A stretch of DNA of 64,000 bases, from NCBI RefSeq assembly GCF_001677475.2, contig NZ_CP015229.1; one strand, 5' to 3'. Position 1 is the stretch's first letter, and every line of letters begins with the position of its first letter. The translations under genes and the position numbers were made by a program. This DNA is from Escherichia coli. GTDB lineage: Bacteria; Pseudomonadota; Gammaproteobacteria; Enterobacterales; Enterobacteriaceae. This document shows positions 2,979 to 39,610 of this stretch, piece after piece. The notes under the pieces are model-generated. The model was not told the DNA's origin. It searched no databases and saw only the letters and a program-made list of their open reading frames with translations.

Positions 2979-4703
2979 TCACTTGCTTAAGTTTATTTCC
3001 AGCGTTTCACCATCTACCGCCAGATCGCGCCACGCTTTCGGCCTCGTCCCCAGCTTTCCATCCTTCGCAGCTGTGAGTAATTTTTCTTTCGTTATTTTGC
3101 GCGGAAGTAAACTCATATCAAGCGCGTCCCATTCTTTTCTGGCTGAGTCAAAGCCATAGACAATGACTCTGTCATCATTAAAAGCAAACAGGATCCGCTC
3201 CGCCTGACCATCACTATTCAGATCTTGCTCGACCAGTACGCAGGCGTCTTTTTCAATACAGGTCATCACGTTATAGCGATCCTGGATTAAGGCCGACCAG
3301 AATGTCGCATCCGGTTTACCAGAGCCTGGGGCAATTAACACATTTTCGGCTAATACTTTTTCCGATACCTGTTCCTGAAGATGTTGCTCTCCATCTAACG
3401 CCATCAGCAGATCCCGCGCGCGTTTCGGGTCTTTCATATACTCGGCATCGCTTTTCAGCGACTCAAGCGCCGCACGTCCATAGCGACCGCTCTGTTCGAG
3501 CATATAGAGACTTACCTGGTCTGGCGTGTTTTTGCCGCTCTGATAACGTGCCATATGACTGTTCACGCTAATACGCATACTGTCCAGCACCGGCGAATTA
3601 AGAAGCACCAGTATCACCAACACCAATAACGAAACCGCAAGGTTCACTTTGCCCTGAAGAACAAGGGGGTTTTGCCCTTTACGCCAGACGATACTGACAA
3701 AATACCCCAGCGACCATACCAGTAACACCAGCACCGCCAACGCGCCCTGCAAGCGGTCGACAGTCCAGCCGTACTGAGCGACCCGCAGCCATAACGCCCA
3801 GGCGGCGACGAACACATACAGCGGAGCAGCCAGCAGAGCGGTTTTAATCAGGCAACGCAACGGCCCTGTCCAGGGAAGTGACGCTTTTTGCGGATCGCGG
3901 ACAATAGCCATTAAGATCAATTGCAAAAATGCCAGCGTCAACAGCAACCCAGCGGCGGAGATGTGGCGAGAAATCGCGCTCAGGCCCGTAAACGGCAGGG
4001 TGATAATAAACATCAGGGTTAGCAATGATACTAACGGCAGCAACCCCGTGGCGATTAGCGTGAACAACTTTTGAATAGAGTCGATTAAACGTGACTGTGT
4101 ACGCGCGAGGATCACCGCCAGTGCGGTAACCAGACCTAATGTAAGATACATAAACCAGTCGGTTGCAAAAAAGAGCGTATTGAAAAACGTGATGCCAACA
4201 AGTTTAAACAACTCGCCCCACAGTAAAAGTACCAGCCATGTCAGGCCATTGGCGAGAAAAATCACCAGTAATATAAGTACGTTATGCCATACTGACTGGT
4301 AAAAATAGCGATAGCGGCTACTGTCATTGCGGATGCGAAGGCTTTGTTGTATCCACGGTAGCAACAACATTGCCATCAGCAGCAGATAGCAACCAAAATC
4401 CCAAAGCGCCTTTTCTGCTCTCCAGGGGTTCATGCCATCAGTTTGCCACTTCAGCCAACCGCTCATCCCTGTCGTGGCAATAAACACCAGCACCAGCCAT
4501 CCCCAAAGGCGCTTCTGTTTAAAGGAGATCACGGAGAAGAGTAAAACGGATGAAAACGCGACGGTCGCAGGCACGCCATAAACAATCCAACTGAGATTTT
4601 TTCCGGCAAGCCAGGCGATCAGCAAGTAGCAAACCAGCCCCTGAAGTAATCCGGTAGCAATCATCCCCCAGCGTGTTGCTGGTGAAAGTTCAACGTTATC
4701 CAT
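2979..4703 (-). CDS. yhgE: YhgE, polytopic inner-membrane protein of unknown function
   Basis: 574-aa ORF, many hydrophobic helices, position between hslO and pck. Confidence 0.85.
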
Positions 4704-5081
4704 GTTGGTTATCCAGAATCAAAAGGTGGGTTAATTATCGCATCCGGGCAGTAGTATTTTGCTTTTTTCAGAAAATAATCAAAAAAAGTTAGCGTGGTGA
4801 ATCGATACTTTACCGATTGAATTTGCATCAATTTCATTCAGGAATGCGATTCCACTCACAATATTCCCGCCATATAAACCAAGATTTAACCTTTTGAGAA
4901 CATTTTCCACACCTAAAATGCTATTTCTGCGATAATAGCAACCGTTTCGTGACAGGAATCACGGAGTTTTTTGTCAAATATGAATTTCTCCAGATACGTA
5001 AATCTATGAGCCTTGTCGCGGTTAACACCCCCAAAAAGACTTTACTATTCAGGCAATACATATTGGCTAAGGAGCAGTGAA

Positions 5082-6704
5082 ATGCGCGTTAACAATGGTT
5101 TGACCCCGCAAGAACTCGAGGCTTATGGTATCAGTGACGTACATGATATCGTTTACAACCCAAGCTACGGCCTGCTGTATCAGGAAGAGCTCGATCCGAG
5201 CCTGACAGGTTATGAGCGCGGGGTGTTAACTAATCTGGGTGCCGTTGCCGTCGATACCGGGATCTTCACTGGTCGTTCACCAAAAGATAAGTATATCGTC
5301 CGTGACGATACCACTCGCGATACTTTCTGGTGGGCAGACAAAGGCAAAGGTAAGAACGATAACAAACCTCTCTCTCCGGAAACCTGGCAGCATCTGAAAG
5401 GCCTGGTGACCAAGCAGCTTTCCGGCAAACGTCTGTTCGTTGTCGACGCCTTCTGTGGTGCGAACCCGGATACTCGTCTTTCCGTCCGTTTCATCACCGA
5501 AGTGGCCTGGCAGGCGCATTTTGTCAAAAACATGTTTATTCGCCCGAGCGATGAAGAGCTGGCAGGTTTCAAACCAGACTTTATCGTTATGAACGGCGCG
5601 AAGTGCACTAACCCGCAGTGGAAAGAACAGGGTCTGAACTCCGAAAACTTCGTGGCGTTTAACCTGACCGAGCGCATGCAGCTGATTGGCGGCACCTGGT
5701 ACGGCGGCGAAATGAAAAAAGGGATGTTCTCGATGATGAACTACCTGCTGCCGCTGAAAGGTATCGCTTCTATGCACTGCTCCGCCAACGTTGGTGAGAA
5801 AGGCGATGTTGCGGTATTCTTCGGCCTTTCCGGCACCGGTAAAACCACCCTTTCCACCGACCCGAAACGCCGCCTGATTGGCGATGACGAGCACGGCTGG
5901 GACGATGACGGCGTGTTTAACTTCGAAGGCGGCTGCTACGCAAAAACTATCAAGCTGTCGAAAGAAGCGGAACCTGAAATCTACAACGCTATCCGTCGTG
6001 ATGCGCTGCTGGAAAACGTCACCGTGCGTGAAGATGGTTCTATCGACTTTGATGATGGTTCAAAAACCGAGAACACCCGCGTTTCTTATCCGATCTATCA
6101 CATCGAAAACATCGTTAAGCCGGTGTCCAAAGCGGGCCACGCAACTAAAGTTATCTTCCTGACCGCAGACGCCTTTGGTGTGCTGCCGCCGGTTTCTCGT
6201 CTGACTGCCGATCAAACCCAGTACCACTTCCTCTCTGGCTTCACCGCCAAACTGGCTGGTACAGAGCGCGGCATCACCGAACCGACGCCAACTTTCTCCG
6301 CCTGCTTCGGCGCGGCATTCCTGTCGCTGCACCCGACTCAGTACGCAGAAGTGCTGGTGAAACGTATGCAGGCGGCGGGCGCGCAGGCTTATCTGGTTAA
6401 CACTGGCTGGAATGGCACTGGCAAACGTATCTCGATTAAAGATACCCGCGCTATTATCGACGCCATCCTCAACGGTTCACTGGATAATGCAGAAACCTTC
6501 ACTTTGCCGATGTTTAACCTGGCGATCCCAACAGAACTGCCGGGCGTAGACACTAAGATCCTTGATCCGCGTAACACCTACGCTTCTCCGGAACAGTGGC
6601 AGGAAAAAGCCGAAACCCTGGCGAAACTGTTTATCGACAACTTCGATAAATACACCGACACCCCAGCGGGTGCCGCGCTGGTAGCGGCTGGTCCGAAACT
6701 GTAA
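5082..6704 (+). CDS. pck: Phosphoenolpyruvate carboxykinase (ATP)
   Basis: Track ORF 5013..6704; start moved to ATG at 5082 ([10 protein letters not shown]) preceded by AGGAG at 5071-5075; kinase-1a motif GLSGTGKTT; 540 aa. Confidence 0.97.
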
Positions 6705-11995: not shown

Positions 11996-12027
11996 CTGCC
12001 AGATAAGGCGTTCACGCCGCATCTGGC
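11996..12027. repeat. REP-like palindromic element downstream of tex
   Basis: CTGCCAGATAAGGCGTTCACGCCGCATCTGGCA, REP-type imperfect palindrome. Confidence 0.55.
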
Positions 12028-12054
12028 AACGAACGCCTTGCCTGACATAAAAGT

Positions 12055-12080
12055 GCCGGAGAATATCTCCGGCCTTTTTA
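12055..12080 (+). terminator. Rho-independent terminator after tex
   Basis: GCCGGAGAATATCTCCGGC hairpin followed by CTTTTTA. Confidence 0.75.
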
Positions 12081-12207
12081 TTCCACAACCAAACTCTCAA
12101 TATATCCCGTTAATATTTATCACTTCATTAACAACTGAAACCTTAATTAAACATTAACCAGTCCTGGTAATTCGCTATTCGAATTATATTTTCGCTGCGA
12201 TATAACC

Positions 12208-12221
12208 TTGAGCCACATCAA
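12208..12221 (+). promoter_or_regulatory. Candidate FNR site in the feoABC promoter region
   Basis: TTGAGccacATCAA resembles the FNR consensus TTGAT-N4-ATCAA. Confidence 0.5.
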
Positions 12222-12275
12222 TATTGAGTCAGATTATTATTCAAACCAACATTCGCACACATTTTAAGTATTGCT

Positions 12276-12303
12276 GATAGAAACCATTCTCATTATCATT
12301 GTG
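12276..12303 (+). promoter_or_regulatory. Candidate Fur box in the feoABC promoter region
   Basis: GATAGAAACCATTCTCATTATCATTGTG resembles the Fur consensus GATAATGATAATCATTATC. Confidence 0.5.
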
Positions 12304-12410
12304 TTGTTGATTATTTAATCTCTCCTTCGTTGGCAAATCATCTGGTCTCATGTCGCTGTCAAACGCCCCATGAGGTAGTTATCCAGTTAATGAGAAACAA
12401 GTAGGCACCT

Positions 12411-12638
12411 ATGCAATACACTCCAGATACTGCGTGGAAAATCACTGGCTTTTCCCGTGAAATCAGCCCGGCATATCGCCAAAAACTGCTTTCTCTAGGC
12501 ATGTTACCTGGCTCCTCTTTTAATGTGGTGCGCGTCGCTCCACTCGGCGACCCCATTCATATCGAAACCCGTCGTGTGAGCCTGGTATTACGCAAAAAAG
12601 ATCTGGCCTTATTAGAAGTGGAAGCGGTTTCCTGTTAA
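12411..12638 (+). CDS. feoA: Ferrous iron transport protein A
   Basis: 75-aa ORF immediately upstream of feoB. Confidence 0.95.
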
Positions 12639-12654
12639 TACGGTGATAACAACA

Positions 12655-14976
12655 ATGAAAAAATTAACCATTGGCTTAATTGGTAATCCAAATTCTGGCA
12701 AGACAACCTTATTTAACCAGCTCACTGGTGCACGTCAGCGTGTAGGTAACTGGGCTGGTGTTACCGTCGAACGTAAAGAAGGGCAATTCTCCACCACCGA
12801 TCATCAGGTCACGCTGGTGGACCTGCCCGGCACCTATTCTCTGACCACCATCTCATCGCAGACCTCGCTCGATGAGCAAATCGCCTGTCACTATATTCTG
12901 AGTGGCGACGCCGACCTGCTGATTAACGTGGTGGATGCGTCTAACCTTGAGCGTAACCTGTACCTGACGCTGCAACTGCTGGAACTCGGCATTCCCTGCA
13001 TCGTGGCACTGAACATGCTCGACATTGCCGAGAAGCAAAATATTCGTATTGAAATTGATGCTCTGTCGGCGCGTCTTGGCTGCCCGGTGATCCCGCTGGT
13101 TTCAACCCGTGGTCGCGGTATTGAAGCGCTCAAGCTGGCGATTGATCGCTATAAAGCTAACGAGAATGTGGAACTGGTGCATTACGCACAGCCGCTACTC
13201 AACGAAGCAGATTCACTGGCAAAAGTGATGCCTTCCGACATCCCGCTGAAACAACGTCGCTGGCTGGGCCTGCAAATGCTGGAAGGCGATATCTACAGCC
13301 GCGCCTACGCCGGTGAAGCGTCGCAGCATCTGGATGCCGCCCTCGCCCGTCTGCGTAATGAGATGGACGATCCGGCGCTGCACATTGCCGATGCGCGTTA
13401 CCAGTGCATTGCTGCCATCTGTGATGTGGTAAGCAACACCCTGACGGCAGAACCCAGCCGTTTCACCACTGCGGTAGATAAAATCGTGCTCAACCGTTTC
13501 CTCGGTCTGCCGATTTTCCTCTTTGTGATGTACCTGATGTTCCTGCTGGCTATCAACATCGGCGGGGCGTTACAGCCGCTGTTTGATGTCGGTTCCGTGG
13601 CGCTGTTTGTGCATGGTATTCAGTGGATTGGCTACACGCTCCACTTCCCGGACTGGCTGACTATCTTCCTCGCCCAGGGCCTGGGCGGCGGTATTAACAC
13701 CGTGCTGCCACTGGTGCCGCAGATCGGCATGATGTACCTGTTCCTCTCCTTCCTTGAGGACTCCGGCTATATGGCGCGTGCGGCGTTTGTGATGGACCGT
13801 CTGATGCAGGCGCTGGGCTTGCCGGGGAAATCCTTTGTACCGCTGATCGTTGGTTTCGGTTGTAACGTACCGTCGGTAATGGGCGCACGTACGCTTGATG
13901 CACCGCGTGAACGTCTGATGACCATCATGATGGCACCGTTTATGTCCTGCGGCGCGCGTCTGGCTATCTTCGCAGTATTTGCGGCTGCCTTCTTCGGGCA
14001 GAACGGTGCGCTGGCGGTCTTCTCGCTGTATATGCTCGGTATTGTGATGGCGGTGCTGACTGGCCTGATGCTCAAGTACACCATCATGCGCGGTGAAGCG
14101 ACGCCGTTTGTCATGGAGCTGCCGGTCTACCATGTACCACACGTTAAAAGCCTGATTATCCAGACCTGGCAGCGTCTGAAAGGCTTCGTTCTGCGTGCTG
14201 GTAAAGTGATTATCATCGTCAGCATTTTCCTGAGTGCTTTCAACAGCTTCTCTCTGAGCGGGAAAATCGTCGATAACATCAACGACTCGGCGCTGGCTTC
14301 CGTCAGCCGGGTGATCACCCCAGTCTTCAAGCCGATTGGCGTGCATGAAGATAACTGGCAGGCAACGGTTGGCCTGTTTACAGGCGCAATGGCGAAAGAA
14401 GTGGTGGTGGGTACGCTCAACACCCTCTACACCGCAGAAAATATTCAGGACGAAGAGTTCAATCCGGCGGAATTTAACCTCGGTGAAGAGCTGTTCAGTG
14501 CGGTAGATGAAACCTGGCAGAGCCTGAAAGACACCTTCAGCCTTAGCGTACTGATGAACCCGATTGAAGCGAGCAAAGGCGACGGCGAAATGGGTACCGG
14601 GGCGATGGGCGTGATGGATCAGAAATTCGGTAGCGCAGCTGCCGCATACAGCTACCTGATTTTCGTCCTGCTGTATGTACCGTGCATCTCGGTGATGGGT
14701 GCTATCGCCCGTGAATCAAGCCGTGGCTGGATGGGCTTCTCCATCCTGTGGGGGCTGAATATCGCTTACTCGCTGGCAACATTGTTCTATCAGGTCGCCA
14801 GCTACAGCCAGCATCCAACTTACAGCCTGGTGTGCATTCTGGCGGTTATCCTGTTTAACATCGTGGTTATCGGTTTGCTGCGTCGCGCGCGTAGCCGGGT
14901 GGATATCGAACTGCTGGCAACGCGCAAATCGGTAAGCAGTTGCTGCGCAGCCAGCACCACCGGTGATTGCCATTAA
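12655..14976 (+). CDS. feoB: Ferrous iron transporter FeoB (N-terminal G-protein domain plus polytopic permease)
   Basis: Track ORF 12643..14976; start at [21 protein letters not shown] (P-loop), 773 aa. Confidence 0.96.
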
Positions 14977-15414: not shown

Positions 15415-16308
15415 ATGAGCAAAAAGCAGAGTTCCACCCCACACGATGCGCTGTTCAAACTCTTTTTACGCCAACCGGAGACGGCACGCGATTTTCTTGC
15501 GTTTCATTTACCGGCACCCATTCACGCGCTCTGTGATATGAAAACCCTCAAGCTGGAGTCGAGCAGCTTTATTGATGACGATCTGCGTGAAAGCTATTCC
15601 GACGTGCTGTGGTCGGTGAAAACGGAACAAGGACCAGGATATATCTATTGTCTGATTGAACATCAAAGCACCTCAAACAAACTGATCGCATTTCGCATGA
15701 TGCGTTACGCCATTGCCGCAATGCAAAATCACCTTGATGCCGGATACAAAACGTTGCCGATGGTGGTGCCATTGTTGTTTTACCACGGTATTGAAAGCCC
15801 CTATCCCTATTCGCTGTGTTGGCTGGATTGTTTTGCCGATCCCAACCTGGCAAGGCAGCTTTATGCCTCTGCATTTCCGCTGATTGATGTCACCGTCATG
15901 CCTGATGATGAAATCATGCAGCACCGACGCATGGCGCTGCTGGAGTTAATTCAAAAACATATCCGTCAACGCGATCTGATGGGGCTGGTAGAGCAAATGG
16001 CCTGCTTATTAAGTAGTGGATACGCTAATGACAGACAAATCAAAGGGCTGTTTAATTACATCTTGCAAACCGGCGATGCGGTACGTTTTAACGATTTTAT
16101 CGACGGCGTTGCCGAACGTTCACCGAAACACAAGGAGAGTTTAATGACTATTGCGGAAAGATTGCGGCAGGAAGGGTTTCAGAAAGGTATACGTACCAAC
16201 GCCCTAAATATTGCCAAAACCATGCTGGATGCCGGAGTCTCTCTTGAGGACGTTCTGCGATTTACCAGCCTGACGGTTGAAGACCTTGCTGAAATAAATC
16301 ATCAATAA
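15415..16308 (+). CDS. rpnA: RpnA (YhgA), Rpn-family PD-(D/E)XK recombination-promoting nuclease
   Basis: 297-aa ORF; family recognised from sequence and position between feoC and bioH. Confidence 0.88.
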
Positions 16309-16325
16309 CGTAAAGGATGGTTTTA

Positions 16326-16499
16326 ATGACAGATGCAGAAAGAGAATATCTTATTAGTTACCTGATTGGTTATTTATTGGGTCGACGCCTGGAAGCCCTG
16401 GATATCGCCAAAAGAATGCTGTAATCCTGAGTCCCTCTTGCGGACATCATGCGTTTTACCGGGGTGTCAGAAGAAGAGTTGGCTGCGGCGAGTCAGTAA
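16326..16499 (+). pseudogene. Degenerate duplicate of the Rpn C-terminal tail: intact 32-codon ORF with its own Shine-Dalgarno, then stop and frame change
   Basis: ATG 16326 preceded by AAGGA (16313-16317) encodes MTDAEREYLISYLIGYLLGRRLEALDIAKRML-stop; the next frame encodes VPLADIMRFTGVSEEELAAASQ-stop; together these parallel the last ~54 aa of RpnA ([12 protein letters not shown]...[34 protein letters not shown]). Confidence 0.5.
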
Positions 16500-16527
16500 A
16501 GTTCTGTCTCGCCATTTCAAAAGCTGT

Positions 16528-17316
<789 letters not shown>

Positions 17317-24975: not shown

Positions 24976-25344
24976 CAAGGAAATGTGATCTCGACCACTT
25001 AAAGCTAGTGCAAACCACAGGATTAGCAGCAAATCAATGCCATACAGCGCAGAAAATCTGTATCTAAGTGCAAAAAATGGCCGTTGCGTATTTTCAAAAA
25101 GCGGAAGGTAACTCTATAAATTAAGTAAAGGAGTGAAACAGTTTCACAAGTAAAATATCCAGTGTGCTCCATCTTATTCTTAATAGATTTATTAAGATCA
25201 TCTTTTTAGATAGCACTTTCATCAGGAATGAAGAAGAAACCCTTGCTTAAATGAATCTGATGAACATAAGGGAAATACCGCACAACCCAGTATTCACGCT
25301 GTATTAGCGTCGTTTTAGGTGAGTTGTTAATAAAGATTTGGAAT

Positions 25345-25360
25345 TGTGACACAGTGCAAA
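25345..25360 (+). promoter_or_regulatory. Candidate CRP site upstream of malT
   Basis: TGTGAcacagtGCAAA (one good CRP half-site, degenerate second), about 130 bp upstream of malT ATG. Confidence 0.4.
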
Positions 25361-25477
25361 TTCAGACACATAAAAAAACGTCATCGCTTGCATTAGAAAG
25401 GTTTCTGGCCGACCTTATAACCATTAATTACGAAGCGCAAAAAAAATAATATTTCCTCATTTTCCACAGTGAAGTGA

Positions 25478-28189
<2,712 letters not shown>

Positions 28190-35925: not shown

Positions 35926-35948
35926 GCCCGGTTGAAGTGCAACCGGGC
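35926..35948 (+). terminator. Hairpin terminator after glpD (shared with convergent island operon)
   Basis: GCCCGGTTGaagtgCAACCGGGC followed by TATTTGG. Confidence 0.6.
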
Positions 35949-35969: not shown

Positions 35970-36575
35970 TTATTGTAAATAATTGAATAACGGCCCCTGA
36001 GCTAAAATCGCCAAACTTAAGCACGTTACCCACTCACCCCATTTCTGCCTCTGGCTTCTATTTTTGCTACACCAATGGCAATAATATCCCAATGCAAAAC
36101 CAACCTGTGCACTAATCGGGCCGACAAAATCAGTCCACGACTGCGGCCAAAAAGGGGAAAAATTCAGGGGAAGCCAGACAAACGTCAGAAAGAAATTTCG
36201 GATATTTTCCAGCAACGCTGATTTCTCTGGAGAAATATAAAGAATGAAATTCGAGAGAATTAACCAGAAATAGACCGGAGAAAAGACCAGCCAGCAATGC
36301 AGTCTGTTTTTTAATTCAGGAGGCGTTCTGCGGGAGAATTGCCAACCGATGCCCCACATTACACTGAAAAAAAATGCATATTCAACCATTAACTCAAGTT
36401 GTAATTCCTGAAGAGAAATACGCACAACCAGGAGCGGAAAGGAGAATGTTATTTCTGCCAGAAAAGTTAACGTGAATATAAGTACGGCTAAGACAATAAC
36501 CGTCGGCCATACCAATACTGGCACGATAACAAAACCGAGAATTACAGGGGGAATATAAAGCCGGAATTTAATCAT
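35970..36575 (-). CDS. Hypothetical small polytopic membrane protein (last gene of uncharacterised four-gene operon)
   Basis: 201-aa ORF with several hydrophobic helices; AGGAAA 7 nt upstream of ATG; 2-nt gap from the upstream gene's stop. Confidence 0.6.
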   Translation of the reverse strand: MIKFRLYIPPVILGFVIVPVLVWPTVIVLAVLIFTLTFLAEITFSFPLLVVRISLQELQLELMVEYAFFFSVMWGIGWQFSRRTPPELKNRLHCWLVFSPVYFWLILSNFILYISPEKSALLENIRNFFLTFVWLPLNFSPFWPQSWTDFVGPISAQVGFALGYYCHWCSKNRSQRQKWGEWVTCLSLAILAQGPLFNYLQ

Positions 36576-36577
36576 TT

Positions 36578-37345
36578 TTATTTTCCTGGTGATTCGGATG
36601 ATGCGTCATACATCGCGCATAAACACTCATCAATCATCCAGTCGTCTACCCAGACCTGATGCTGTGTACCCTGTTCTGGCTGCTTTGGTGGGTTCTCAAT
36701 CGCCTGCCGCGCGCGTTCTTTCAGGATGGATTGATTGTTGAAGGCCCAGGCATTGATTTGGGCGGTAATGGCATTATCGATATCGTCATGGTTATCTCTG
36801 ATATAACCTTCACGATACTGGTTCAATAAACAGGCAAGTGAAGCTGCCGACCAAAAGCCGGGAATTGAATTAACGGCATCAAGCAACGGCGCAATGGCGA
36901 TATCGGCACGGAAAAACATTTCCAGCATATACTGTAATTCGACAGCTTCATCGCCGGATACCCAATCAGCCATATACTGGCAGGCAAATCGCTGCAATAT
37001 TGCCCGTTCATCCGCACGCCAGTTTTCTTTGTTGGCAAGGTTGATACGGCGCAGAGAAAAAACTTCGTGAATATTGTCAAAATACCCCTGTGCAACAAAT
37101 TCCAGTAAACGCGGAAGAAAATAGCGGACCTCATCGCTATTTTGCGGATCGGGTCCTGGGCTACTATTCCAGGCATTGATTAAGGAATACGAGATCGCTC
37201 GTAACGATGTACTCCGTAATACCTTTTGTTCCTGCTGACTCAGGCAATATTCACAACAAACCACAAATTTCTGCGGCACCGGATAGCGACGAAAAATATG
37301 ATAAATCTGCTCAATTAATGCCTGCATGGCGGGGCTGGGTTGCAT
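36578..37345 (-). CDS. Hypothetical soluble protein (third gene of uncharacterised operon); start ambiguous
   Basis: Track ORF 36578..37372 (264 aa); preferred start is the ATG at 37343-37345 (MQPSPAMQALIEQ, 255 aa) preceded by GAGGGGG and 2 nt after the upstream stop. Confidence 0.55.
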   Translation of the reverse strand: MQPSPAMQALIEQIYHIFRRYPVPQKFVVCCEYCLSQQEQKVLRSTSLRAISYSLINAWNSSPGPDPQNSDEVRYFLPRLLEFVAQGYFDNIHEVFSLRRINLANKENWRADERAILQRFACQYMADWVSGDEAVELQYMLEMFFRADIAIAPLLDAVNSIPGFWSAASLACLLNQYREGYIRDNHDDIDNAITAQINAWAFNNQSILKERARQAIENPPKQPEQGTQHQVWVDDWMIDECLCAMYDASSESPGK

Positions 37346-37347
37346 AA

Positions 37348-38055
37348 TTACCCCCTCGCCCGCTGGTCGCATGTAAATGGTTGATAAACCAAACGAGCAT
37401 TCGCCGCATTCAGGCGAATAATGGCACTACGAGAGAGGGAAAAGCTGGGGCGAATGCAATAATTACAGTCCCGACAGCTATCCTCTGTGCAATTTTCCAC
37501 TGAGTAATGACGCGCGTAGAGTTTCAGTTCAGCCTGCTTATCGCGAAATCCGCGTAAACTGTTATCGCTATGAAATTTCCAGGCTTCTTTAAACACCTGA
37601 AAGATATAGACATCCTCAATCCAGGAGTCACATTTTTTAAGCGGGCGCTTTGCTATGATCACCCGCTCCGGGTTTAGCATCGCCGTAAAATGAACGGTGA
37701 AGTCATTTGTCGTATTCAGGTCACATTGAACATCTGGTACATCACTGATATAGGGGTCAAATCCAAAATCAGCACCACAGGCACAAAGACGACCGATCGT
37801 GGTGGTATCGAGGGAAAATCCCGGCCATACATTGCTGGACGTTAAGCCAATATTTAATGTGACATTATATCGAAGCAATCCCTCAAGACCGTCAGCACCG
37901 ACGAACTTTTCCCCTTCATCCAGGACCTGATTAATGAGTTGTTGAACAATACCTTCATCCCAGTATGCCGATTTGCAGTTGGCAATCGTAATATCCACGC
38001 CTGTGAAAGGATCAGTACCAGCGAGGCTTGCAAATAATGTATTAACTAATTCCAT
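37348..38055 (-). CDS. Hypothetical Cys-rich protein (second gene of uncharacterised operon)
   Basis: 235-aa ORF with 10 Cys including cluster C-x4-C-x2-C-x2-C (CTEDSCRDCNYC); 14 nt downstream of the first gene. Confidence 0.6.
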   Translation of the reverse strand: MELVNTLFASLAGTDPFTGVDITIANCKSAYWDEGIVQQLINQVLDEGEKFVGADGLEGLLRYNVTLNIGLTSSNVWPGFSLDTTTIGRLCACGADFGFDPYISDVPDVQCDLNTTNDFTVHFTAMLNPERVIIAKRPLKKCDSWIEDVYIFQVFKEAWKFHSDNSLRGFRDKQAELKLYARHYSVENCTEDSCRDCNYCIRPSFSLSRSAIIRLNAANARLVYQPFTCDQRARG

Positions 38056-38069
38056 TTTTATTACCCGCC

Positions 38070-39587
38070 TTAATGCAACGTTTTATACATCGGCACATAA
38101 CCCACGTCTTCTACCAAACTCTGCCCCTGCGGCGTTAAAAACCATTCAACCAGTTTTTGTGTTTCTGACGTCATATTTTCCCGCGTTACCATAAAGGCAT
38201 CGACGATATAGGGATATTTGCCATTGCGAATGTTTTCCGCAGTCGGTGCAATACCGTTAATCGCTAACAATTTGATATTCTTATCGGCATTCATTTGTGT
38301 TGCGTAATAGCGGAAGGTATAACCTATTGCGTTGTTTGTATTACGGTATTCGGCAACGACTTTAATCATTCCCTCCATCACACTTGCCACTTCGGTTTCC
38401 TGCGGCGAGATCATACGGACATTTTTCATGACCTGTAATTGCATCACCGTCTGACTGCCAGAGTCTTCCGGGCGTTGCCAGGTCTGGATCTCCTGATCGT
38501 TACCGCCAACAGTACGCCAGTTGGTAATTGCGCCACTAAAAATGTCTCGCACTTGTTGTTCAGTCAGGGAATTGACTGGATTATCAGCATTGACGATAAA
38601 AACAAATGCTTCACGGGCAAAGGGGGTGTACAGCAAAGTGACACCAGATTCCTTTGCACGTTTTTTCTGCCCACCGGAAGGTTGCGCCACGAAAATAATA
38701 TCAGCATCACCCTTAACGATTTTGTTATATGCTTCTGGCGTACGAGAGTTATCCAGATAATCCCAAACGTGAAAATCCTCTGGTATTATGCTTAACGCAT
38801 AAAAGGCAGAAGCATAAATTGGGTACGCCGCCGTGGCACCATCGATTCGCGGCCAGTTTTGCGTAAACTGAATTTGCGGTTTGCCACGCAGCGGCGTCAG
38901 TCGATTATTGAGTTTATCGGGTCGCCAGGCCCAGATATCAATATTTTCGCGTACACCAACACCAGGGTTTTGCTGCTTATATAAATGGGCCTGATACCCA
39001 GCGACAATACCAAGTAAGAGAAGTAGAAACAGGAGTAAGTTACGGCAACGTAGCCCGGACGTGCCGGTTAAAGGATGCCTTGTCGGCCAGCCGTATCCCA
39101 GCGAAAAACTGATATGCGTTCCAACGGGAATAATGACTATCCACCAGTACTCACCACCGACTAATGAGACTAACAAAACACCCAGCCAGGGAAGCATAAG
39201 ATCTGCCAACCAACCTGAAACCATCTGGCGAAATTGATAATCTGCCAGATGTAGCGTGATTATCCAGCCAACCAGGATTAATAAAGCAGGAACTAAAAAA
39301 AGACATTGTCGCCAGGCGGCTATTTCTCTGTTTTCTGGTGCGCTATCGCCCGCCCACACTCGCCCAGAGAAAAATAGCAGTAATGCGCCCAGCGTCAGCA
39401 TAAAGACGTTAAGTAGAAGATAAATTGTTGGCGTAAAGAGTAAATTGCAAAACTCAAGAATAGCGGCAAGCCCGGCCCCCAGCATGGCAATAACCGCCGC
39501 CAAAAACTGCGCCAGAATGGGGATGCCGAAAAAAGTCATTACCAGCGAGGTCAAAATCCATTTTCTGTTTTGCATTATTCTTTCCAT
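38070..39587 (-). CDS. Membrane-anchored PstS-like (PBP-like) substrate-binding-domain protein (first gene of uncharacterised operon); probably the intact form of K-12 pseudogene yzgL
   Basis: 505-aa ORF; N-terminal ~190 aa with multiple hydrophobic helices; C-terminal part with phosphate-binding-protein-like motifs (LTEQQVRDIFSGAITNWRTVGG); alternative start at Met5 (39575). Confidence 0.7.
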   Translation of the reverse strand: MERIMQNRKWILTSLVMTFFGIPILAQFLAAVIAMLGAGLAAILEFCNLLFTPTIYLLLNVFMLTLGALLLFFSGRVWAGDSAPENREIAAWRQCLFLVPALLILVGWIITLHLADYQFRQMVSGWLADLMLPWLGVLLVSLVGGEYWWIVIIPVGTHISFSLGYGWPTRHPLTGTSGLRCRNLLLFLLLLLGIVAGYQAHLYKQQNPGVGVRENIDIWAWRPDKLNNRLTPLRGKPQIQFTQNWPRIDGATAAYPIYASAFYALSIIPEDFHVWDYLDNSRTPEAYNKIVKGDADIIFVAQPSGGQKKRAKESGVTLLYTPFAREAFVFIVNADNPVNSLTEQQVRDIFSGAITNWRTVGGNDQEIQTWQRPEDSGSQTVMQLQVMKNVRMISPQETEVASVMEGMIKVVAEYRNTNNAIGYTFRYYATQMNADKNIKLLAINGIAPTAENIRNGKYPYIVDAFMVTRENMTSETQKLVEWFLTPQGQSLVEDVGYVPMYKTLH

Positions 39588-39604: not shown

Positions 39605-39610
39605 ATTATA
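39605..39610 (-). promoter_or_regulatory. Candidate -10 hexamer for the uncharacterised four-gene operon
   Basis: Minus strand TATAAT about 18-23 nt upstream of the first ATG and downstream of the glgP terminator; no good -35. Confidence 0.35.

Follow-up and report, generated by a model that had tools for sequence, protein, structure and literature searches.

What does the last gene of a four-gene operon between glpD and glgP encode, and with which of its neighbours does the product work? The question arises from a 64,000-nt stretch of Escherichia coli DNA (contig NZ_CP015229.1; the whole stretch is called the window here), in which the gene order is malT, rtcA, rtcB, rtcR, glpR, glpG, glpE, glpD, four genes on the minus strand, and glgP. 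These four genes are designated g1 to g4, g4 being the one next to glpD. Sequence comparison shows g4 to be homologous, along its whole length, to the membrane domain at the N-terminus of g1, of which it is a paralogue standing alone. The gene itself is already present in databases as a hypothetical protein; new are the recognition that it is a paralogue of the membrane anchor of its neighbour, reduced to that domain alone, and the undescribed family to which both belong. An earlier reading of the window from its letters alone (the original prediction) had recognised g4 as a membrane protein and overlooked both the mutual homology of the operon's two membrane components and the PstS-like domain carried by g1.

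Homology of g4 to the g1 membrane domain

A Superficieibacter-like metagenome contig (L002) links the two proteins. Its g4 homologue aligns with g4 of the window (BLASTP E 3e-26, 32% identity over 173 aa) and, collinearly over its full length, with the N-terminal part of a PstS-like paralogue encoded on the same contig (BLASTP E 1e-10, 31% over 170 aa). Comparison by hhalign of 17 g4-family sequences with 8 g1-type membrane domains yielded a probability of 98.2% and an E-value of 5.2e-14 over 163 columns, and a joint alignment of 25 sequences is collinear over the full set of helices. In both the g4 and g1 groups, eight columns never vary; they correspond to P19, G77, P100, W134, W147, F160, G163, and Y164 in g4 numbering.

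Along ~165–200 collinear residues, g4 and the g1-type membrane domains share these eight residues, the predicted helix order, and the charge distribution, in addition to a common operon and an equally narrow taxonomic range. Unlike the g1-type proteins, g4 lacks a periplasmic binding domain, its chain stopping at residue 201, a few residues past its last helix; its identity to g1-type domains is only 17–23%, and it is split into two deep allele classes.

Family searches and distribution

No credible Pfam, NCBIfam, PADLOC, or PHROG family was found for g4 and the 25 family members. Against defence profiles (PADLOC-DB), g4 gave a noise match only (E-value 0.043) and g1–g3 gave none, and no PDB sequence was matched by the g4 profile or by g2 or g3. 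Family scans of the operon proteins picked up no domain of a catalytic, signalling, toxin, or defence kind. When the g4 profile was run exhaustively against 1.84 billion representatives with HMMER, 42 matches came back, consisting of Escherichia-type sequences or fragments and one 184-aa Superficieibacter-like protein; g1 membrane domains were not reached at a library-wide E ≤ 0.001. A word-index search with the mixed g4/g1 alignment returned almost only Escherichia fragments. Judged by these searches, the membrane module of g1 and g4 is an undescribed domain family.

Of 5426 complete E. coli genomes, 4144 contain g4 DNA, and in 3876 of these at least 80% of the gene is covered; a g1 of nearly full length occurs in 3349 genomes. 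Intact g4 open reading frames (ORFs) of 199–201 aa occur in DNA loci from E. coli, E. whittamii, and other Escherichia species, protein clusters named E. albertii and E. marmotae measure 199 aa, and homologues of 169–184 aa at ~32% identity are encoded by a Superficieibacter sp. and a near-identical metagenome contig. Across Escherichia and Superficieibacter-type genomes, the intact ORFs span 31–73% identity. The scan for related loci with a full-length g1, which used two narrow peptide patterns, found at least six.

Predicted fold and topology of g4

Phe, Trp, and Tyr together account for 19.4% of g4 (21 F, 11 W, and 7 Y), compared with 11–12% in g1–g3. Hydropathy peaks at residues 8–44 and 94–115, and Lys and Arg lie almost wholly within three short segments (1–7, 81–93, and 169–181), as in the equivalent loops of g1. 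The AlphaFold2 model built from the 25-sequence alignment is an all-helical bundle (mean predicted local distance difference test score, pLDDT, 73.9; predicted template modelling score 0.72) with helices at residues 4–44, 55–83, 91–97, 99–117, 120–133, 148–172, and 175–200. The helix at 148–172 holds the most conserved motif, GPxSAQxGFALGYY, and an acidic residue is conserved at the E41 position of the membrane domain, beside conserved Pro, Gly, and Trp. Modelling from 13 close homologues alone gave an unusable result (pLDDT 48); the rise from 48 to 74 once g1 membrane domains join the alignment is consistent with a shared fold. Fold searches with the g4 model recovered generic helical bundles only, with no full-length match to any solved membrane-protein fold. 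The composition, hydropathy, and all-helical model bear out the hydrophobic helices and aromatic-rich profile that the original prediction had read from the translation.

Orientation can be reasoned from g1. Its binding domain must be periplasmic, being closely paralogous to a lipoprotein encoded in some versions of the locus; the helix preceding this domain thus runs from inside to outside, and the K/R-rich loop in front of the helix lies in the cytoplasm. Carried over by alignment, the most likely topology shared by g1 and g4 places the N-terminus inside and the C-terminus outside. The g4 chain would then cross the membrane an odd number of times, probably five, with its N-terminus and the K/R-rich loops 81–93 and 169–181 facing the cytoplasm and its C-terminus, as well as residues 50 and 122, in the periplasm.

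Selection, allele classes, and decay

Two main classes of g4 alleles are found in E. coli, one at ~95–98% nucleotide identity to the window (~3000 genomes) and the other at ~78% (1109 genomes), with 63–73% protein identity between them. Between the classes, the ratio of nonsynonymous to synonymous divergence (dN/dS) is 0.21–0.27 at dS ~0.8, which marks purifying selection and lies in the range of the membrane part of g1 (0.15–0.25); within classes, the g4 ratio is 0.26–0.66. The inter-class dS compares with 0.13–0.32 for flanking glpD and 0.24–0.44 for g1 within E. coli, and such depth at the g4/g1 locus points to ancient haplotypes or introgression.

Open frames are not universal: in E. coli the locus is variable, with frequent pseudogenes and deletions. 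Stops interrupt g4 and g1 in strain 1579 (L011), g4 is frameshifted in FXCREC043 (L013), g3 is frameshifted in an O111 strain, and K-12 retains of the locus only yzgL, the 5' end of g1. With the lesions in g4 itself, many truncated protein clusters, the absence of the gene from K-12, close-allele dN/dS values of 0.46–0.66, and the confinement of the family to a few genera, one could regard g4 as the decaying leftover of a tandem g1-type duplication, still open in many strains and devoid of present function. We consider this unlikely. ORFs of similar length remain intact across genera at 31–32% identity, the inter-class dN/dS equals that of the g1 membrane domain, all eight invariant positions are retained, start-stop coupling is kept in every architecture, and the gene is widespread among complete genomes. 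The conserved intact ORFs and inter-class dN/dS mark g4 as a real gene, and the original view of it as a small polytopic membrane protein is supported.

Locus architectures and the constant neighbour of g4

Two arrangements of the locus occur in E. coli. Type A, seen in the window, reads g1-g2-g3-g4; type B, found in BL21(DE3), O157:H7, L006, and L013, consists of g1, a gene for a lipoprotein of the PstS-like kind, and g4, with no g2 or g3. In every locus examined, g4 is the last gene of the operon, and it begins either 2 nt past the stop of the gene before it or within that gene, with an overlap of 1–13 nt, whether that gene is g3 or the lipoprotein gene. At the glgP–glpD site of Superficieibacter, g1 is followed by a g2 paralogue, an inserted helicase gene, g2, g3, g4, and a gene for a small secreted repeat protein. 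Contig L002 carries a g1-type gene split into a 98-aa membrane fragment and a 314-aa binding-domain ORF, followed by two full-length membrane-plus-PstS-like paralogues, g3, and g4. Compared across these loci, the constant companion of g4 is the g1-type gene, not g2 or g3, and the conserved unit, as judged from gene content, is g1 plus g4.

This bears on the proposal that accompanied the original prediction, in which g4 joins g1, g2, and g3 in a four-protein membrane-associated signalling or effector complex, with cytoplasmic g2 and g3 taking a signal from the membrane parts. Its count of two membrane and two soluble components holds, given the membrane domain of g1 and the lack of hydrophobic segments in g2 and g3; the four-protein set as a conserved unit does not, since type-B islands keep g1 and g4 without g2 and g3. 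The 2-nt gaps joining g2, g3, and g4, the preservation of the order g1-g2-g3-g4 in Superficieibacter, and the adjacency of g3 and g4 in L002, L004, and L007 speak for the complex. The constancy of the g1-type companion in all architectures weakens it, and g2 and g3 have no recognisable signalling domain.

A phenotype of the locus has also been counted in its favour. Deletion of O-island 133 (OI-133) in the enterohaemorrhagic E. coli (EHEC) strain TUV93-0 lowered type III secretion in a screen, without follow-up there (PMC3378721); the result is restated in PMC10877973. The glpD–glgP locus, matched through the three-gene O157 locus, is OI-133 of O157, where it has the type-B form. The phenotype thus comes from an island lacking g2 and g3 and cannot depend on either. 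Overall, we regard a four-protein complex as distinctly unlikely. Our literature search found no functional study of yzgL and none on g4 or the membrane domain, and literature under the EDL933 locus tags and OI-133 held only one rpoS array value and the one screen phenotype.

Several neighbours of these loci were recorded alongside. The helicase gene of the Superficieibacter sp. locus (L007, 11183–13990) encodes 935 aa that include the SF1 helicase domains AAA_11 and AAA_12 and, at the C-terminus, DUF2726; it lies between two g2 paralogues and looks like a mobile or defence-type gene. Secreted proteins of 142–143 aa with TxRDxxGHxKG repeats are encoded 3' of the operon in L007 (16249–16677), L002 (9566–9994), and L008 (11178–11609); they have no Pfam match, were seen in non-Escherichia loci, and are absent from the window. 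In L002, a Ro60/TROVE-vWA gene (15781–16837) adjoins rtcR, where the window has rtcB and rtcA after rtcR.

The PstS-like domain of g1 and the type-B lipoprotein

Residues 247–485 of g1 match PF12849 (PBP_like_2) with 105 bits (cut-off 27), and the binding domain matches PstS chains in the PDB at E 1e-18; against TIGR02136 it scores 121 bits, under the cut-off of 206.6. The likeness to PstS and PBP_like_2 phosphate-binding proteins (e.g., PDB 4q8r, 4gd5, and 1twy) belongs to this C-terminal domain of g1, not to g4. Apart from the TIGR02136 score, g1 differs from PstS proteins in having a multi-helix domain as its anchor instead of a signal peptide or lipid.

The middle gene of type B encodes a PstS-like protein of ~330 aa (5066–6058 in BL21(DE3), L014; 4566–5558 in O157:H7, L016). 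The BL21 protein has a lipobox-type start ending in LLAGC and shares 59% identity with the binding domain of g1. There is also a resemblance between the signal peptide of the lipoprotein, VLLLGTALLAGC, and LLLLLGIVAGY, the helix with which the membrane domain of g1 ends; the array may therefore derive from tandem g1 copies that lost different halves.

ATP-binding cassette (ABC) importers of the OpuA or GlnPQ type have binding-protein domains fused to membrane domains. The operon resembles them in that a binding fold is covalently tied to a polytopic domain in g1 and g4 supplies a second membrane subunit; it differs in that the g1 membrane domain precedes the binding domain and no permease fold is matched. 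No Pfam or NCBIfam match to an ABC permease (PstA/PstC, BPD_transp_1) was obtained for g4 or the 25 family members, and no architecture includes an operon ATPase. One might still envisage g1 and g4 as a transporter of two homologous ~5-helix halves with a fused binding protein, forming a new type of binding-protein-dependent secondary carrier or channel. The two homologous membrane modules, the one or two PstS-like domains, the lack of an ATPase, and the conserved Pro, Gly, and Trp with the acidic residue at the E41 position would fit such a machine. Neither module resembles any transporter family or fold, and the binding domain falls below the PstS subfamily cut-off; this assignment is very improbable.

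The soluble proteins g2 and g3

RefSeq labels g2 as "YbbD family" in some genomes and as hypothetical in others. The label was rejected: NF007301 scores 25.2 bits against a cut-off of 373 and covers the first 43 residues only, and tblastn finds no match in the K-12 rhsD-ybbD region, where ybbD is a pseudogene beside rhsD. The lead toward Rhs immunity was dropped with it.

That lead had belonged to a reading in which g4 is a polymorphic membrane protein that protects against, or gives immunity to, a toxin targeting the membrane; this would explain the deep allele classes. Two such classes coexist in E. coli, their dS of 0.8 is far above that of flanking glpD, and K-12 ybbD, to which the g2 label refers, adjoins orphan modules of rhsD. 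Apart from the failed YbbD link (25 bits vs 373), no toxin, Rhs, contact-dependent inhibition, or bacteriocin gene lies in or beside the island in any locus, PADLOC gave no match, and dN/dS of 0.21–0.27 gives no hint of diversifying selection. A simpler origin lies in the homology to the membrane domain of g1, and we hold an immunity role to be very improbable.

Homologues of g3 were found only in Escherichia/Shigella and Superficieibacter-type contigs, with no match in Pfam, NCBIfam, or PDB sequences. Two cysteine motifs are common to Escherichia and Superficieibacter, VCCxYC near residue 30 (in the 255-aa form) and DECLCAM near the C-terminus, and they suggest a putative metal-binding site. 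The longest g3 ORF starts at 37372 and would encode 264 aa; the ATG at 37345 is the RefSeq-annotated start in the orthologous locus L001 and is used throughout.

Genomic context of the operon

Features of the locus are compiled in Table 1. With g3 begun at its RefSeq start, the intergenic gaps g1/g2, g2/g3, and g3/g4 measure 14, 2, and 2 nt, so that g4 stands fourth and last in a tightly packed operon. The minus-strand sequence of the g3/g4 junction is CCAGGAAAATAAAAATG, in which AGGAAA (36587–36582) precedes the g3 stop TAA (36580–36578), two bases (36577–36576), and the g4 ATG (36575–36573). The original prediction had the 2-nt spacing before g4 and the upstream AGGAAA right.

Table 1. Features of the glpD–glgP interval in window coordinates
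Feature	Position	Strand	Description	Basis
g4	35970..36575	-	201-aa inner-membrane protein, ATG start	ORF, helical model, g1 homology, dN/dS
g3	36578..37345	-	255-aa soluble protein without known family	
g2	37348..38055	-	235-aa soluble protein without verified family	
g1, whole gene	38070..39587	-	505 aa; membrane domain plus PstS-like domain	
g1, C-terminal part	38070..38972	-	PstS-like periplasmic binding domain (PBP_like_2)	PF12849, TIGR02136, and PDB PstS matches
g1, N-terminal part	38973..39587	-	~205-aa membrane domain, g4 homologue	Hydropathy, alignments, hhalign
AGGAAA	36582..36587	-	Hexamer resembling a ribosome-binding site, 6 nt 5' of the g4 ATG, within the end of g3	Read from sequence
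GC-rich hairpin	35926..35948	+	Between the convergent glpD and g4 stops	Scans as glpD terminator
TATAAT	39605..39610	-	Perfect hexamer between the glgP hairpin with its T-run and the g1 ATG, 18 nt from the latter	

The g4 transcript may also end at the GC-rich hairpin. A promoter of g1's own at the TATAAT hexamer is possible, as a consensus match only; the promoter scan upstream of g1 picked a different, weak site (39603–39574).

The four-gene segment has a GC content of 44–46%, against 51–54% in the adjoining 2 kb on each side. Its best full-length identity is 94.1%; glgP reaches up to 99.3% identity to E. coli genomes. Low GC and the lack of the operon in K-12 lend some truth to its description as an island. 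The operon is nevertheless present at the glgP–glpD site in Superficieibacter and in another Enterobacteriaceae genome, and this identical site in other genera implies that it is old there and being lost, not recently gained. Elsewhere in the window, three further 1-kb stretches have low GC (44–45% against a background of ~52–55%), at 4001–5000, 12001–13000, and 25001–26000.

Proposed role of g4

We favour, at about even confidence, a reading in which g4 is a membrane module only, pairs with its g1 homologue in the membrane, and serves a periplasmic-ligand system. g4 would have arisen when a g1-type gene was duplicated and the copy lost its binding domain, before the split of Escherichia and Superficieibacter. 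Associated with the g1 domain, it would form the membrane part of the system, whose input could be a small ligand, possibly an oxyanion, bound by the periplasmic PstS-like domain. In type-B islands, the separate PstS-like lipoprotein would act as the binding partner that g4 itself lacks. The gene, its membrane character, the homology, synteny, tight coupling, and purifying selection are shown; topology, ligand, and output are inferred, as is the pairing, which we base on paralogy, constant co-location, and coupling.

Several points weigh against it. Aligned directly by BLASTP, g4 and g1 of the window give no significant match (best E 0.21), so the homology rests on the intermediate sequence and on profiles. 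Five crossings would require that helix 120–133 or helix 148–172 of the model does not span the membrane. Close alleles of g4 show dN/dS of 0.46–0.66. Neither gene strictly needs the other: L008, the other Enterobacteriaceae genome, has g1 only and no g4 at the glgP–glpD site, and in E. coli JCM 5491 (L012, 4835–7222) genes for a fimbrial protein and a chaperone replace g1 and leave g2–g4 intact. Finally, pseudogenes of g4, g3, and g1 and the loss in K-12 indicate, as read from these genomes, that any function is dispensable in many lineages.

A bolder version of this pairing can be stated. g1 and g4, with the lipoprotein in type B, might constitute an undescribed binding-protein-dependent sensor or carrier, confined to a few Enterobacteriaceae, built on a domain of no recognised family or fold, maintained as ancient allele lineages in E. 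coli, and influencing type III secretion in EHEC. As a whole, this is a speculative picture that we hold unlikely.

Were g4 merely decaying, the locus would be of local interest only. As it stands, g4 carries the label "hypothetical protein" in roughly three of every four complete E. coli genomes, among them BL21(DE3), Nissle, ST131, and O157:H7, and pairing with g1 gives it a first hypothesis that is concrete and can be tested. For the variable glpD–glgP locus, the conserved unit is redefined as g1 plus g4 in place of the four-gene set and, given the type III secretion phenotype of OI-133, a PstS-like periplasmic input could tie this unit to virulence regulation.
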